Source: Trichodelitschia bisporula
Taxonomy: Eukaryota
Direction: 5' to 3'
DNA length: 64,000 bases
Assembly: GCA_010356995.1 (NCBI GenBank)
Contig: ML996693.1
Location: 1,054,001 to 1,118,000 of the forward strand
The position numbers and the translations under genes are program-made. This document shows, one piece after another, positions 2,986-43,043 of this stretch; the stretch's first letter is position 1; every line of letters begins with the position of its first letter. A model generated the notes under the pieces. That model was not told the origin of the DNA. It did not search any database and saw nothing but the letters and a program-made list of their open reading frames with translations.

Positions 2986-3584
2986 CGGGTAATGGGCGCT
3001 GGGTTTAGGTTTTGGGTAGCGGGTAGCGGGTTGTGGGTTGTGGGTTCTGGGTATCGGGCGGGGGGCGGGATTTAGGGTTAGGATTCGGTCTTTACGATGA
3101 ATGATTTGTACGAGTTTTGGACTGGGCTGGGGGAGTTGGGGCTGTGGGTAAGGGTTACCCACGAGATGACTACGTCTGGTTCGTTTTTAATTGCTAGTTT
3201 TAAAACCCTTTCCTTTAGGAATCATATGTAGGCATAGCCTCGAGATCGTTCCTTGAACATGTGTGTCCCTCCGCAGTGTCAGCCATAGAGTAATGGGGGC
3301 AAAGACCCAAGGATGAAGACGGTGCAAGATACCAAACTTTGCCTGCGGAGCGCGGGTCTTGGAGGCGAGGCAGGAAGGTTGGAGTCGGGGTATGTACGGG
3401 GTGTGCAGCGGAAGGTACGACGGGTCCTTCTGTGAAAAGACAGGTTTCTAAAGCGTACCTGCCTCCAGAACCACCACCTGTCTCCAGAATTGCACCTGCC
3501 TCCAGGATCCAGCGAGGACGTGGCCTCTTCCCACCTATATCCCTCTCCATCTCTCGCACATCACACTGCAAACCACCACCACTC

Positions 3585-29004: not shown

Positions 29005-29794
29005 GGGGTGATTGGTGAGGGAAGGTGGTAATGGTGACGCCTTTCGAGGTGGACGAGATGGGAAAAATGAGTATCGTGGGTTCGTGGTTTCTTTGGTCCG
29101 TTTGCTTAGGTTGAGTTTCTAGGCATACCGGGTGGGATAATAGTCACTCCTTTTCTGGGCAAGCCCTTGATGTACCGCATTTTCAATTGTATCACGATTC
29201 ACTCCTTTACGGATTCGTAATCGACCACTGATCTGCAGTGCCGGCGGTTGCCATGTGATATGAGTACAGGACCAATGTACTGGAAGTTGCAACCGGCAAC
29301 GTCACTGCTGATGTCGACGTGAGGCAGAAGCATTGTTATCTCAGAAAGGAGCATACTTGTCTGAAGAAGGGACGTGACGTAATGTGCTCATGGTTGAGGG
29401 AAGGAGCATCGGGGGCCATGATCCATATATTTCGGACAGCCTCTCGACTCTCATCCTTTCATCGTCTTTATCTCCATCTTCACTTTATACGGTCGCCTGT
29501 TGCTCACGTCAAGCTTTGCTTCCATTAACTGCTACGGCTCACAGATCTGTCATACTGACAGCCACGTATTCTTCATGACTTTTGAAGCAAAGTAAGTTTA
29601 CTCCGCACCTTTCCTTCGGTACAACCCTCTTCTCTGTCATACCGAAGGTCAAAGTATGGTGTGCCTTCATCTTGCCTTTGCATGGCAACACAACAGTGCA
29701 AAACATCATTCACGACTAACTGCTTTTCGTCCACTCACAAAGGCCTCAGCATCCAATCGAGCCCACCCACCACCACGCGCGCCGCACCTAGCAC

Positions 29795-30262
29795 TCAAGC
29801 CGCCACCCTCGCTACATTCAAAAAGAACCGTCCCAACCACCCCACCCCGGCCCACCAAACCGCCGTCCTCAAATGGCCTGTCGCCTGCGTCCCGCCCGTA
29901 ACATACACTACCGCATGAAGAGCCCTCAACCCAAACCACCCCTTGATAAAGCCCATCAACTCCGCATGCCCCACGCCCGCCCACAACCCCGCCAGCACGG
30001 CCGCGACATACAGTGGAAGCGTTTCATGCGCGTTGGCAGTGGCGGCCTCGGCGCGCTCCCAGCGCGCGAAGATGTGGGGAGGCAGGGATGATTGGAGGTG
30101 TGACCGGAAGGAGGAGGACCGGGGTGAGGAATTGTCGAGAGTGGAGAGAGGGAGGGGGCCGCGCGCGAGGTGCATGGCGTAGACGTGGGGGAGGAGGCTG
30201 AAGATGTGATAGGCGGGGATGGAGAGAAGGGGGATGTTGTAGGCGGAGAGGAGGGAGGCCAT
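29795..30262 (-). CDS. MAPEG-family membrane protein
   Basis: Starts MASLLSAYNIPLLSIPAY; contains DNSSPR, ERAEAATANAHETLPLYVAAVLAG, RALHAVVYV, LRTAVWW, matching the MAPEG pattern. Confidence 0.8.
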   Translation of the reverse strand: MASLLSAYNIPLLSIPAYHIFSLLPHVYAMHLARGPLPLSTLDNSSPRSSSFRSHLQSSLPPHIFARWERAEAATANAHETLPLYVAAVLAGLWAGVGHAELMGFIKGWFGLRALHAVVYVTGGTQATGHLRTAVWWAGVGWLGRFFLNVARVAA

Positions 30263-30993
30263 GGTGGAGGGTTCTTGGGGGGAGAAGGTTGTGCTGAGGA
30301 ATGGGTGGGTCGCGCGGTGTTGATTTTGTGAGCTACATTCGAGGGATGGGGAGCTCTTAAAAAGCGGCGATGCTGACGTGAGGCGGCCCCCCAGACAACG
30401 TTCCGGTGCGCGGGCCGGACAAATGATTAGTTCCGCCTCCGTCGAAGCGCGGCGCAATGCTGCTGTACCGGTAAATACGCATTCGTAGTGGACGCCAAGG
30501 ATCGGCTTTTGTTCCGAGTCGGGTTATTAATCTGTCCTGCGCTCTGACTTGCGGGCCGGGAGGGCTTAACCTTACCCGCGTCGCTTGGCAGCCTTGCATG
30601 TCCTGCACTCCGAGGGCGGCTTGATTCCGTGTTGGACAGGCGAATCGGAAGTGGGATGGGGAGTGTGTACAATGCGGAATTGGAGGTGAGGGCTGATGTC
30701 TGCCTTTATTCTTTGGCGTGGAGCGGAGGGCGATGGGGCAGTGGACTTCCGCCGTATCGTTCATGTCGGACGAGATCAGGACGAGCGGCGGCTGGCAGCA
30801 GAAAGCAGATCCGATTCATATAGACACGACACGCTCACCACGAGAGCCATGTCGTAACCATCCTTCAAGTCTCCAACTCAGGTCCCCACCCCATCCCCCA
30901 CCTCCCCAATTCCCCACCCGCATCAACCCCCTCACCTCCCGCCCTACACGCAGTTAGCCATTCCCCTCCCCAGAAAAAACAGGGAATACTCAT

Positions 30994-32700
30994 AAAAAAT
31001 GGCCCCCCGCCATCCCCTCAAGAACAGTAGGAGCAGGTACCAGACAAAAAATTAACCGCGCGCACCTCCCCCCTCCCAACACACCCACCACCCCTCCCCC
31101 CAACCCCTGCCTTCCCCACCCAGCCTCCCCGCCGAAGTTACCTACCCACACGTCATCAACACGGGAACCCCGCAGCTGAGCCTAGGCCCGCTAAACCGAC
31201 TCCCTTCCACCTTGACACGCTGGCAGCCCGTACGCGCAGACAAGCCGGGGCTTTGAACACCGCGGGGCGGGTTCCCGCGTGAACGGCTGGGGTTCCAGTG
31301 GCTTTGGTAGAGAGGGGGACGGGGAGCGGGTACCTGGCTTCAGCGCGCGGGGCCGCTCAGCGCGGGGCGTTTGACCTCGCAGTGCGGTTTGGCTGTCAGG
31401 GTCGGTGGGGGGGCGGGAACAGAGGCGTAGACACGTGGTTCGGGCTTCGGTACGACGCAATGTCCGCAGGACATAAATGCATCTCCGCGCATCTCGCAGC
31501 TTCCCTCCAAACGTGCATCTCCGTTGCAGGGCTAGGCCCGTACCGCAAGATCTCCCACCCAGTGCTGGACTCTCTGTTGTGTCGCATGCCCCTCGGAGAT
31601 GGGTCTTTGGTTTCCGTTCAGCCGCGCGCGTGCGCAACCGTCAGGCAAAGGCGGACAAAGGACGTCTGGGAAAACCGCTTGTGGCCGTGCCTAGCGGCAC
31701 GGCGTTCGGCGCTTGACGCCTCGGGCGGGGCCGGAGGCGGCGATTAACGCGGGTGGTCTGGCATCCCCCATGGGGGACGGCGCTGGTAGCGGGTGCTGGG
31801 GCGCTGGCGCGGGAAGCAAGCCCGCGAAGATGAGGGGGGGAAACGGGACCCGGGATCGAACAAGTCGATCCCGAGAAAGGAGACGTGCGGGTGTCTTCGC
31901 CAGAGGGTGGAATCCGGGTTGCATCGGCAGGTCGTTGTGTCCGGGGACGGTTGGTTTTGCTCAAGCTCTGCTGCTGGACTCCGACGAACCCTGGTTTTCG
32001 CAAAGGGCAGCAGGATATCAGACTTCCGGGGCGTGGCGACAAGTCGATGCTGATGAACGGGGTACCGGTTTCCCGGGCCCACCATCTGAGGTCAGACTAC
32101 GTCGCGCCCGTCTTCAACCACTTGAGCCAGTGCGCTAGACCAGGTGACCGGGCCTGAGGGCTGCGGTCCAGAGCAGAGCGAGCGCCACCAACCGCCGTCC
32201 GGCGAGCCTGGAATCCGATATACGCAACCCGTAGATCTGGCGACCGCAAATCCAGTCCCTCAGCTCATGAAGATCCCAAAGACACTCCCCAAAAAACAGG
32301 GCGTCCGACGTCCCCCACCTGGATCCTCCTCATCTTCGCAGGCAGCTTCATCCAACGCTGCCAATCATGACCGAGTCACATATGCCGGACAGAAAAAGCC
32401 GACGCTCGCCTCTTCGAGGCATCCCATGGCAATCTCCATCCACACGGCGCCCTAACCGGGGTTGGGCACTTCGTCGGGCCGCACAGAGCACGACACCCGG
32501 CAGCCCTTCGAACGCGCTTAGTTCCCGGAAAGGACAACTCGAGAGCCCGCGAGGCTGGACCGGGGAATGGCTAGGGTTAAGTTCCGAATCCTTTTTCGTC
32601 CCCAGCGCGGCGCAGCGGTGTGACCCGCTGCAGACATCGCGCTGGTTAGTGGACGAAAGGGAACGGCGCACTTTGGGGAGGGGGGGGTGCGTGGTTCTGT
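30994..32700 (-). ncRNA. TER: Putative telomerase RNA (TER), ~1.7 kb; 5' end approximate
   Basis: Template UAACCCUA (32579-32572) directly 3' of a long hairpin (32664-32581). 5'/3' closing inverted repeat (32673-32696 with 31054-31079). Sm site AAUUUUUUG (31053-31045). Terminal intron AUGAGU..GCUAAC..UAG (30993-30944). No credible ORF. Confidence 0.85.
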
Positions 32701-33229
32701 GTGTTGAGAGCGGCGGCTGGGTGGGAGATGATGCGGTGAGAGACCAGGGTGCAACTTCGACGATGGGGCGGGGAGGAGCTGGGTGGTGAGATGGCGGTGG
32801 TGATGCGTATGGGGGGAGAGGGTTGGTGGTTGCGGAATGGTTTTAAGGGATGCGGGCACGCGACGCGTCGGGGCTTGGCAAACATGCGCCAAGATGGAAG
32901 CCGCGAACGTTCGATGTGGCGTCTGAAGTCCATCGCGAGCATGTGATACGGTATGTATCGGCGAAGGAAAGTAACTAACGACTCAAGTTGTTGTTTGATG
33001 ATAGTACAACGAAGTTCGTCATCATCGCCCCACAATACTGTACTACGTAGATGCCACAAACTCAAAATTCCCACTGATAAGGTTATCCTCTGCTCCGTCA
33101 ATCTCCACCAACTGAACTTGTCAAAGTAATCCCCCATCTTCACCATCGCGGTTGCAGAACTGAAAGAAGCCTTATCGCCCCGCGACACATCATAACGCCA
33201 CTTACGCTCTGTCGACGGGACCCGACATC

Positions 33230-36200
33230 ATGGAAGTAGACTCGGCCTCGCCAGAACCCTCAGGTGTGACGCCGCAGGAAGCAATCTCCAAAGCAGAAGC
33301 CTTTCTGGAGCCGGCGCTTGCCTACGGTAAGTATCGAAATACATCCGCATCAGGAATTTAACACGCCGTAGCCCGCCAGCATCCCGATCAGACCACGAGC
33401 ATCAGCTCCCGTCTTGCCAACGATGAGCTAGCACAGCGCGAGGCCCTCGAGCACGCATGTCAACATCTCACCGCCATTCACCAAAGCCTCTTAGATGCGC
33501 AGCGGATGGGGAGCAAGCAAGTCTACGACTCCACCCTCCTGACCACCGTGTACTCCCTCATCGACTTCATCCTCCTGGAAGCCCTCTACCCGAGACTCCC
33601 CGAGGGCGCTGGTAACCCCCTCGAGCTCCGCAAACGGGCTTTGTTCTGGAAGTCCATGGACCGGAACTACACGGTCCCTCCCGACAATGGCACCTTCTAT
33701 GATGCCATCCGCGCTTTCCGCCAAATTACGCGCAGCATAGGCGAAGGCCTTGAGCCCCTACTGCGGAACCGTGCGCTGAAGCACATCATCGTACTAGATG
33801 CCTTCCTGATCCTGTCGCGTAATGACTGGGAGCAGTTGGTTGGAACGGCATGCTCGTTCAGCGACTACATAGTCGCGCTCCCCACGGACGCACTGATGAC
33901 AGAAATGTCCGCCCTAGTAAAAGCGAATGCACCGTCCTGGCTGAAGAACCCTCTCACTTCCTCCCTCTCCCATCTCCCCCTCCGCCCCGATGGCGTCCGC
34001 AGCGTCTTCGAGTATCTCGCACGCGCGCGGCACAGACCCAACACGCAGCCGGAAACTGACATCCCCACCCCCTCCAAAGGCCCAACCTTCACCCTCGAAG
34101 TCCTCCAAGACGCAGCCCGTCTCCTCTCCTCCGTCCCCTCAACCATGACCGCAAAAACTTGGCTCGCGGGCATTGGGCCGCAACTCTTCGCCCTTCTCGA
34201 CGCTGGCGGCGACATGAGCAAGGCGGCAGCTTACGTCATCGTCTTCGGGATTCTGTCCAAGAAAGCCCTCGGCGCAAGCAATGCCCCCGGCTGGACCACC
34301 TTCGCTCTCCCAATCCGCGACGCGCTGTACCCGACCGCGCCCCTGGAGCGCTCCCCCCCAGACCTCTCGGACCTAGAGCCCGTCGTCGTCCCGGAGGCCA
34401 CGCTACACACGGCACTAAGGCGCCTCTTGACCCTCGTGCATTCCCACCCTCACCCAGCCGTCGCAAAGCGGCTAGTCGGCATGTGCCGCGGGCCCCTCTG
34501 GGCCATTGCCGCATACGACAAATCGCCTGTCGTAGCAGCGCAGTGGTCCGACCTCGCACTCCGCCTGTTGGCGCGCTACATTAGCCTATTCCCCGACTCA
34601 GACCCTCTGCTCAACGTCTTCGACAGCATGCTGTGGGACGGTGCCGCGGAATGGGAATTCGCCCCCGGTGACCAAGGCGGGATAGCAATCCGCGTCCGCA
34701 CGCCGGAGGGGAATATCAATCTTGAAGCCCTGCAGGAGAAGATCGAGCGGCGCATCGGATCGTTCCTTAAGCTTGTGGAGGCGCTGCAGCTTGATGCGCA
34801 GAAGATGGCGGAGCTCCTCCTCGCCATAACGCGACGCTGGCTAAGTGCGGAGCACAGGGAGGGCAAGTCGCCGATTCAAAACCTCGCCCGGACTGCCCTC
34901 GCGCAAGCCCTGCTCGAGAAGCACCTCGCGCTGCTCTCCAGCTCGCCCATCCAAGCGCTCACATTTATCTCCTCGCTGCTGCGCATCCTGGGCGACCAAC
35001 CGGCGCCGAGCGACCCAGCGCTGCTGATGCAGCCCGAAAGTCCAGCGTATGCGAATATTATCTCTGATTGGCCCGAGGACCCCTCCAAGGAAGCCCTCGT
35101 GGAGCAGCGAGAGGACATGATGTTCACGGCACTGAGTGTCATGAACGCCGTACTTGCGGCGCCGCTGCCTGTAGACCCGAAGTTGGAGACCACACTCAAA
35201 GACATCGAGGATAACATGCGCCGCGCCTGGAATATGCCGTACCGTCTGCAGTGGAGCGCCCGCATCACCAACACCATCAAGCGCCTGTCCGCCCTCCGCG
35301 AAAAGCTAAACACTACACAGACCCCCACCGCCCCGCCTTACACCAAGCCCTCCTTCCTCGAATCCCTCCCCTCAATCCGTACCCAGCTCTCCAGCGACCA
35401 ACCACCCATCCGCCGCTCCGCCCTCGCAACCCTAGACTCACTCCTCACCCCAGAAGCCAATCCCGACACCCAGCTAGCAGCCACCCTCCTGACCTCCCTC
35501 CTCCTCTCCGAACCAGAAAGCTTCGTCTACCTCCCCGGCATCAGCTCCCTCCGGCGCCTCGCCTCTCTCGATCCCCGGCGCGCGGCCAACACGCTCGTCG
35601 ACGCCCTGTCCGACCCCTCGGAAGCAGGCTCCGTCGACGGGCGCTTGCGCGTCGCTGAGGCGCTCATCGCCGTCGTCCCGGTCCTCGCTGGGAGCACGGA
35701 GGGCAGGCTCGCGATCCCGCACGTCGCTGAAGTGGCGATTAAGGTTGCGGGTAGGCGCGGGCGTCGCGAACGCGAGGCGTCCGAGCGGGTTAAGGCGGAG
35801 CGGTTGGCGCGGCGGAAGCGCAAGGAGGCGGAGCGGGCGTGGGGCGGGGAGGTGCCTGAGGTTCCAGACCTGGAGGACGGGTATGAGGAGGAGGAAGGTG
35901 AGGCTGCGAGGGAAAAGCGCAGGAGAGAGATAGAGGCTATTCAGCGCATTGTGCGTGGCTGGGAGGACACGGGGTTTGAGGAGGATGTGAGGGTGCGGGC
36001 GAGCGCGTTGGGCGTGCTGGCTGGCGTGTTTGAGAATGGGGGAGGCGGTGGGGTGGTTGGAAGTGCGGTCGATCTTGTGCTTAGCGTGCTGGTTATTGAG
36101 ACGGGGACTGAAAGGGCGGTGCTAAGGCGTGCTGCGGCGATGGTGCTGCTTGGGCTGGTGAATGGGATGGACGGGGCGTATAAACGGGGCGAACAGCCGT

Positions 36201-36451
36201 ACGTTCTAGCGGCGGAGAAGTGGTCTGAGGTAAGGCGGGTGGTGGAGTGGGTAAGCGCGGAGGATGGAGACGATGTTGTAAGGGACCATGCGGAGACGGT
36301 GAAGGAGAATTTGGAAGCGGTGGCGATGATAGGGGTTTTGGCTGAGGGGGAGATGGAGAGGAGGAGAGTGGAGGAGTTTGGGAAGGAGGGGTTGAGGGGG
36401 TTGAGCCTAGGGGAGAGTGGGGGTAGAGCGGGGATTGAGGAGGTTGAGTAG
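33230..36451 (+). CDS. RTP1: RNA polymerase II assembly/nuclear import factor Rtp1 (TANGO6 homolog); intron 33327-33371
   Basis: ARM/HEAT-like ~1050-aa protein with LPLRPDGVRSVFE, WEFAPGDQGGIAIR, ESFVYL, DGRLRVAEAL, DVRVRASALGVL, VLRRAAAMV. ATG 33230 plus a GTAAGT..TAG intron joins in frame to the long ORF. Confidence 0.85.
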
Positions 36452-42943: not shown

Positions 42944-43043
42944 GGCAAGGTGGCCGAGTTGGTTAAGGCGTCAGGTTAAGGTCTCCCTTAGCAACAATAT
43001 CCTGATTCAGAAATGAGCACGAGTTCGAATCTCGTCCTTGTCA
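42944..43043 (+). tRNA. tRNA-Leu(AAG) with ~18-nt intron
   Basis: GGCAAGG/CCTTGTC acceptor stem; A box TGGCCGAGTTGG; anticodon stem TCAGG/CCTGA with loop TT-AAG-G; intron after position 37 containing CCTTA; long variable arm; B box GAGTTCGAATC; T-run terminator ~43057. Confidence 0.93.

Follow-up and report, generated by a model that had tools for sequence, protein, structure and literature searches.

Telomerase RNAs (TERs) of Pezizomycotina have been described for Neurospora crassa (Qi et al. 2012/2013, PMC3592445) and for Aspergillus species (Kuprys et al. 2013, PMC3603654), and the Rfam model RF02462 (Telomerase_Asco) stands for the ascomycete family. In the parts of these papers used here, the N. 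crassa RNA has 2049 nucleotides (nt), a template-pseudoknot domain with core-enclosing helices, a P5/P6/P6.1 junction, and a NUNGN loop on P6.1 whose U and G are needed for activity; and in the account of Kannan et al. (2015, PMC4299874) an A at intron position 1 limits the spliceosome to the first step in Aspergillus, which yields the mature 3' end. Here we describe a locus within 64,000 nt of Trichodelitschia bisporula (contig ML996693.1, positions 1,054,001 to 1,118,000; hereafter the window), and we conclude with high confidence that the minus strand from about 32826 to 30994 is the Pezizomycotina-type TER gene of this fungus. It is no new kind of RNA: the locus is a new, very divergent member of the family already described in 2012–2013. 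Its anatomy is complete and in the canonical order, i.e. putative core-enclosing helices, boundary hairpin, template, CS3/CS4, P5/P6/P6.1, and U-tract/5' splice site/branch site/UAG:

30994..32826, minus strand: proposed mature TER, about 1.83 kb; the 5' coordinate is where an RNA contig ends, the 3' end a predicted spliceosomal cleavage site
32672..32745, minus strand: putative core-enclosing helices, 5' strands (32737-32717; GCUCUC 32711-32706; CGCA/CCCCUC 32691-32678)
32581..32664, minus strand: template boundary hairpin, outer pairs GUUCC/GGAAC, ending one base before the template
32572..32579, minus strand: template UAACCCUA, which would specify TTAGGG and leave 2 nt for realignment
32268..32412, minus strand: conserved block containing UGUCUUUGGGAUCUU
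31603..31680, minus strand: pseudoknot region, CS3 and CS4
31680-31675 with 31654-31648, minus strand: PK1, AAGCGG with CCGC(C)UU
31674-31671, minus strand: U-tract of the pseudoknot, 4 U
31660-31656 with 31609-31605, minus strand: PK2, CUUUG with CAAAG, 5 base pairs (bp), the CAAAG lying inside CS4
31615-31603, minus strand: CS4, GGAAACCAAAGAC
31535..31602, minus strand: putative core-enclosing helices, 3' strands (GAGGGG..UGCG 31594-31583; GAGAGU 31574-31569; 31562-31542)
31225..31296, minus strand: three-way junction (CR4/5-like), the match of covariance model R1
31281-31275 with 31239-31233, minus strand: P5, CACGCGG with CUGCGCG
31274-31255, minus strand: P6
31253-31242, minus strand: P6.1, AAGC-CCCG-GCUU
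31065..31130, minus strand: G-rich tract with complementarity to the RNA's C-rich 5' part
31045..31053, minus strand: Sm site of a preliminary description, AAUUUUUUG, canonical in form and off the conserved position of the relatives
30994..31013, minus strand: pre-cleavage motif AUGGCGGGGGGCC, followed by the Sm-like U-tract AUUUUUU (31000-30994)
30944..30993, minus strand: terminal intron, 50 nt (5' splice site AUGAGU 30993-30988; branch site GCUAACU 30958-30952; 3' splice site UAG 30946-30944)

The locus resembles each of the described systems and departs from each. With the Aspergillus TERs, as given in the parts of Kuprys et al. used here, it shares the order of blocks, from the promoter-like ACGCGTCGCG through the GCUAACU branch site, and a compact three-way junction; UCAAAGCCCCGGCUUGUC here is, by eye, close to UCAAAGCCCAGGCUUGUC of A. 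terreus. It differs from them in its template (8 nt vs. 9 nt) and its splice site (AUGAGU vs. AUA(A/C)GU), and does not align with them outside the core blocks; its GC content is 62%. With N. crassa, compared by its published description, it shares the two-domain layout and a similar length, whereas N. crassa has UAACCCUAA as template and, on P6.1, the 5-nt NUNGN loop in place of the 4-nt CCCG. The 3' end resembles the system of spliceosomal cleavage in what Kannan et al. describe, namely a U-rich Sm-like site followed by an A-initial 5' splice site, but the third intron base is G here, and the equivalence of AUGAGU to AUAAGU is putative. Relatives reported by RF02462 have the CS3-CS4, junction, template spacing and RTP1 synteny of this locus, whereas the window itself goes unreported at the thresholds tried.

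Motifs taken as consensus from the Aspergillus TER alignment (supplementary file 1 of PMC3603654) and searched on both strands of the window place the core of the gene. The boundary/template, CS3 and CS3-CS4 motifs match once each in the 64 kb, on the same strand and in the published order: GGAAYHWRACCCTA, the boundary/template junction, at 32572-32585 (minus strand; 0 of 100 shuffles); the CS3 consensus, with one mismatch, at 31651-31678 (minus strand; 0 of 100 shuffles); and CS3 plus GGAAAC, spaced as in Aspergillus. The stable boundary helix 1–2 nt upstream of the template is present, its fold (186 nt) having a z-score of −3.46, with 1 of 200 shuffles as good, and UUCGGAACUUAACCCUA is identical between the window and many relatives.

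We obtained the relatives by scanning metagenome contigs with a CS3-CS4 pattern, which gave 40 loci. In 29 of them AACCCTAA lies 733–1301 nt upstream of CS3, and the corresponding spacing in the window is 902 nt; the remaining 11 comprise ten with no template in the upstream stretch and one (L031, GC 0.32) that is a probable chance match. RF02462 reports all eight of the relatives tested, seven with at least the 30 bits of its gathering score (one of these with 1229 bits over the full model) and the eighth with 27.5 bits; therefore these relatives are real TERs. Independent tests of the window come from what the search pattern did not include: template, junction, 3' end and neighbouring gene.

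The junction played no part in choosing the metagenome loci, in which its consensus reads P5, GGGACC...GUC (P6), A, AAGC-loop-GCUU (P6.1), GU and the return strand of P5. Across 20 distinct loci this structure is 94.4% paired, 11 of 18 pairs are changed on both sides, and the covariation score is reached by none of 500 shuffles. R1, the covariance model built from these 20 loci with the window excluded, has a single match on both strands of the 64 kb, at 31225-31296 on the minus strand (23.8 bits, E=1e-5), where P6 and a 4-bp P6.1 are found at a distance of 350 nt from CS4 (215–512 nt in relatives). A rule scan for P6.1 (4-bp stem, NUNGN loop) had returned five candidates, none in a junction context, and an alternative P6.1, GGGC-CUAG-GCUC near 31192, was dropped, the relatives' consensus and R1 putting the junction at 31225-31296. 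The minimum-energy local fold of 31150-31300 is not above shuffles (z-score −1.0).

In the pseudoknot, the CS3 U-tract and the CS4 A-tract are both present and could form base triples. PK1 shows changes on both sides at three pairs among 27 aligned sequences, and a C-G pair is unique to the window, the others carrying U-A or an unpaired C.A at that place; PK2 is invariant among the aligned sequences because the search pattern fixed it. The segment after CS4 (31602-31535) aligns with conserved post-CS4 segments of relatives and carries the putative 3' strands of the three nested core-enclosing helices; one pairing among them is a 21-nt inverted repeat with 90% complementarity. The cofold of 32745-32672 with 31602-31535 reaches −48.3 kcal/mol vs. 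−16.3 ± 4.3 when shuffled (0 of 300 as good). The strongest cofold found, at −72 kcal/mol, joins the same C-rich 5' part to a competing partner, the G-rich tract (about 31150-31040), so that energy alone does not settle the fold; inverted-repeat pairs also join this tract to 32674-32821, which is weak evidence given the low sequence complexity, and the tract may be an end-closing helix or an alternative partner.

Outside these domains one further block is conserved. Megablast of the window TER against 39 loci gave no alignments, and sensitive blastn against the same 39 loci gave three blocks, 32412-32268, 31682-31570 and 31018-30947. The first of them is 68% identical to L035 over 156 nt (E=2.7e-10) and has 15 nt identical to A. 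clavatus in the published Aspergillus alignment; GTCTTTGGG lies 297 nt past the template in the window and 323–357 nt past it in L008, L013 and L035. A U-rich element at 32299-32276 was at one point considered as CS3 and was rejected, since it belongs to this separate block and the true CS3 is 31678-31651; GUCUUUGG within it is the exact 8-bp complement of CCAAAGAC in the window CS4.

AACCCTAA is the template in all 29 metagenome loci that have one and in 10 of 10 Aspergillus species of the alignment, and all of them carry AACCCUAA, where the window has AACCCUAG: the position after UAACCCUA is G32571 here vs. A in all relatives. The DNA and RNA contigs of four sequencing runs show no alternative letter at this position, and therefore G32571 is real. 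The complement of about 1.5 telomere repeats, which is UAACCCUAA in relatives, is represented by UAACCCUA, and the A-to-G change leaves a realignment region of two perfectly matched bases (three with a G-T wobble counted). Template length is tied to processivity, and short alignment has been linked to low repeat-addition processivity in mouse and N. crassa template variants, in the part of Qi et al. (PMC3592445) used here. TAACCCTA occurs twice in the window vs. 0.38 times expected by chance. Far from the TER, at 3072-3080 on the minus strand, stands a lone TAACCCTAA, a full 9-nt template-like word that 10 of 100 shuffles also give once and that is probably there by chance. An inverted repeat between the 3' flank of the template (32555-32573) and the intron including the branch site (30955-30973; both minus strand; 19 nt, 84%) was likewise taken as chance: none of ten relatives did better than 11 of 200 shuffles, the figure also obtained for the window.

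The 3' signals of the window have the layout of the relatives. Of the relatives whose sequence continues far enough downstream, 11 distinct loci carry, 461–916 nt after CS4, first a hairpin and a C-rich run and then a U-tract with AUAAGU; the same layout is found 612 nt past CS4 here, and also matches Aspergillus 3' ends. The U-tract, A-initial 5' splice site, branch site and 3' splice site are all present. The pattern of U-tract, ATRMGT and GCTRACT, in which the third base of ATRMGT was fitted after the sequence was seen, matches the window once (30952-30999, minus strand; 0 of 100 shuffles), and AUGAGU is also found in L039, which RF02462 scores at 185.6 bits. One-step spliceosomal cleavage would then be expected at AUGAGU as well; in A. 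niger, replacing the A at the first intron position by G leads to full splicing instead of cleavage and to less mature RNA (PMC4299874).

RNA from the locus is present. Four runs contain the stretch, two of DNA (X1, X2) and two of RNA (X3, X4, both from one sample); X3 and X4 are recognized as RNA because they contain the GT..AG joints 28434/28476, 28615/28659 and 33325/33371, which X1 and X2 lack. The RNA contigs over the locus span 31127-32826 (X4) and 31092-36334 (X3), and among the contig pieces listed none spans 30883-31091.

Much of this anatomy had been put forward in the preliminary description, which was made from the letters of the DNA. It had claimed a minus-strand stretch with no credible open reading frame, and none of the five frames (95–166 amino acids) inside the TER stretch has a Pfam match; its long hairpin is found at 32664-32581 with the z-score given above, its C-rich template is present as UAACCCUA at 32579-32572, and AUGAGU, GCUAACU and UAG bear out its terminal intron. 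Its extent of 30994-32700 agrees at 30994 with the predicted cleavage site and has to be moved upstream at the other end, given the helix strand 32737-32717 and the RNA contigs to 32826. The Sm site that it named at 31053-31045 exists as AAUUUUUUG, but the U-tract of the relatives adjoins the splice site, and the homologue by position is AUUUUUU at 31000-30994; AAUUUUUUG, about 50 nt upstream of AUUUUUU, is a second Sm-site candidate. That the whole is the species' TER is supported by the agreement of the Aspergillus-motif matches, the spacing in 29 relatives, the R1 match, the RTP1 synteny and the RNA contigs.

The flanks of the gene are made up as follows:

33230..36451, plus strand: RTP1 gene, exons 33230-33325 and 33371-36451, the divergent neighbour
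32826-33230: interval between TER and RTP1; the head-to-head arrangement is found here and in L002, L003, L009, L014, L016, L019, L020, L024, L027, L028, L035, L039 and L040
32859..32868, minus strand: promoter-like motif ACGCGTCGCG, between the TER and the divergent RTP1
32847-32840, minus strand: TATA-like CTTAAAAC
29798-30262, minus strand: MAPEG gene, open reading frame with PF01124

The joined exons of RTP1 translate exactly to protein P0001 of T. bisporula, which has the Pfam RTP1 domains PF10363 and PF10304; the intron joint 33325/33371 is visible in RNA contigs, and the closest RTP1 homologue found is 33% identical. In 16 loci the contig extends 1150 nt or more upstream of the template, and in 14 of them a tblastn search with the RTP1 of the window places RTP1 upstream and on the opposite strand of the TER; the 16 fall into ten distinct groups, and each of the ten has the head-to-head RTP1. 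The first RTP1 match begins 787–1222 nt from the template in relatives and 925 nt from it in the window. From sequence comparison, Pezizomycotina whose TERs differ greatly appear to have kept the TER-RTP1 pair. MAPEG was not found in any relative among the metagenome loci. Synteny around Aspergillus TERs, with A. nidulans as an exception, has been reported, with RTP1 not named in the passages of Kuprys et al. (2013, PMC3603654) used here, and in the literature searched we found no paper joining telomerase RNA with RTP1, nor Trichodelitschia with telomerase. MAPEG and RTP1 are both confirmed as the flanking genes that the preliminary description had named; RTP1 is indeed head-to-head with the TER, but at a gap of about 400 bp (from 32826 to the RTP1 start codon at 33230) instead of the 530 bp given there. 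A check that it had proposed, the Rfam model of ascomycete telomerase RNA, found no match at this locus.

The interval shared with RTP1 contains putative promoter elements. ACGCGTCGCG occurs once in the window and also in the Aspergillus TER alignment, in the block labelled 'Promoter?', yet 21 of 100 shuffles match it too, which makes it weak evidence, and its promoter function is putative. In the window and in 16 of 16 other distinct loci, ACGCGT/CGCGNCGCG or CACGTG lies no more than 700 nt upstream of the template (about 0.3 per locus expected by chance, a rough estimate); this palindromic motif may serve the TER-RTP1 interval as a common promoter element of the cell-cycle or E-box kind.

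Several observations weigh against the identification and have to be set beside this evidence. RF02462 has no match to the window at its gathering score, at E≤10 on 30000-33600 (about 3.6 kb), or at E≤10 on 601 nt covering the pseudoknot and the junction; the window thus stays below the 30 bits that serve as operational membership, which is a criterion of detection and not a biological feature. The template is 8 nt, one base shorter than the 9 nt of 29 of 29 relatives, and the TTAGGG product is a prediction from the template letters. The P6.1 loop, CCCG (4 nt), keeps the G but has C in place of the U of NUNGN; ATAMGT, the strict splice-site form of Aspergillus, has no match in the window; and the pseudoknot flanks GCCCUCC and GGAGAGG, conserved in relatives, are missing. 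The window satisfies the pattern by which the relatives were found, so that agreement in CS3/CS4 is in part by construction. The RNA contigs carry no strand, RNA ends or expression level, and their cover runs on into RTP1. The search for a second, better locus covered the 64-kb window, and such a locus may exist elsewhere in the genome. The missing flanks probably explain the Rfam miss, and the failed match reflects divergence, not absence of the gene. As for the loop, C-bearing forms are found in A. terreus (CCAG) and A. fumigatus (UCAG) of the alignment and in the metagenome loci L003 (TCAGT) and L011 (TCAG); therefore NUNGN is not universal in the family. The 8-nt template, the AUGAGU splice site and the CCCG loop are the three unusual details of the locus.

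These points bear on what else the locus could be. A decaying or non-functional TER copy, with the working TER elsewhere in the genome, would account for the silence of RF02462, for the loss of the last A of the template realignment region and for the absence of the conserved U from the P6.1 loop, and the search for another copy reached no further than the window; but the locus occupies the conserved site beside RTP1, as in ten of ten distinct relative groups, every structural element is still able to pair, RNA contigs cover it, and C at the same loop position is found in some Aspergillus species and metagenome TERs, which together make such a copy very unlikely. A real TER whose template is read in another register is, in our judgement, a highly improbable case: the A-to-G change does create CCCUAGCC, which likewise has a 6-nt unit within a 2-nt terminal repeat and would specify CTAGGG-type repeats instead of TTAGGG, and the telomere repeat is deduced from the template, not read; however, copying would then have to halt well short of the boundary, and the boundary helix and the UUAACCCUA junction are identical to relatives base for base.

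The locus might also give rise to a long non-coding transcript unrelated to telomerase, or to one that arises upstream at the RTP1 promoter, and carry the telomere-like 8-mer by chance. In one run the RNA cover does continue into RTP1 without a break, and at least two copies of TAACCCTA appear in 4 of 100 shuffles. This reading leaves unexplained, however, five more independent elements that match those of TERs, correctly ordered and spaced, and the syntenic recurrence of the same arrangement in relatives, and we give it almost no credence. We therefore retain the reading of the locus as the TER gene of T. bisporula.

On this identification we propose how the RNA would be made and used, the steps being drawn from homology except where stated otherwise. 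TER transcription, on the minus strand, would start from the interval common to the divergent RTP1, and the precursor would extend through the 50-nt intron. At the A-initial AUGAGU the spliceosome would stop after the first step and release the 5' exon, ending in the U-tract, as a mature RNA of about 1.8 kb. Nested core-enclosing helices would close a core comprising the boundary hairpin, the template and the pseudoknot, whose U-tract could form base triples with the U-A pairs of the second helix. UAACCCUA would direct TTAGGG synthesis, the boundary hairpin would halt reverse transcription one base beyond the template, and the separate P6/P6.1 junction would provide a second contact with TERT; both TERT binding and templating in vivo by this RNA are predictions from homology.

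Three side observations concern the rest of the window. RNA contigs of the highly expressed MAPEG gene (29539-30882) reach 30882, about 620 nt upstream of the MAPEG start codon, and in run X3 the depth over 30395-30882 is near that of the TER contig; this cover could be a long 5' untranslated region, or a second exon plus read-through of the TER precursor. At 29350-29487 contigs of all four runs end with unlike sequence beyond, and several short pieces are 90–95% alike, which suggests a dispersed repeat. The sole Rfam match at gathering score in the window is a tRNA gene at 42944-43043 (plus strand), whose 100 nt are long enough for an intron.

In conclusion, the locus supplies the missing telomerase RNA of a phylogenetically isolated fungus, and shows by example that a true member of the family can escape the curated Rfam model and still be found through domain-level models and synteny. 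We suggest, as a tentative and rather doubtful proposal, that the short realignment region makes this a natural short-alignment telomerase among TTAGGG fungi and, separately, that TER and RTP1 are an old head-to-head pair across Pezizomycotina; if this is true, TERs that diverge too far for the Rfam model to detect could be anchored by synteny with this pair. As natural variants, the 8-nt template and the CCCG loop lend themselves to tests of their effect on processivity and TERT binding, and the head-to-head arrangement of TER and RTP1 offers a practical route to the TERs of other Pezizomycotina genomes.

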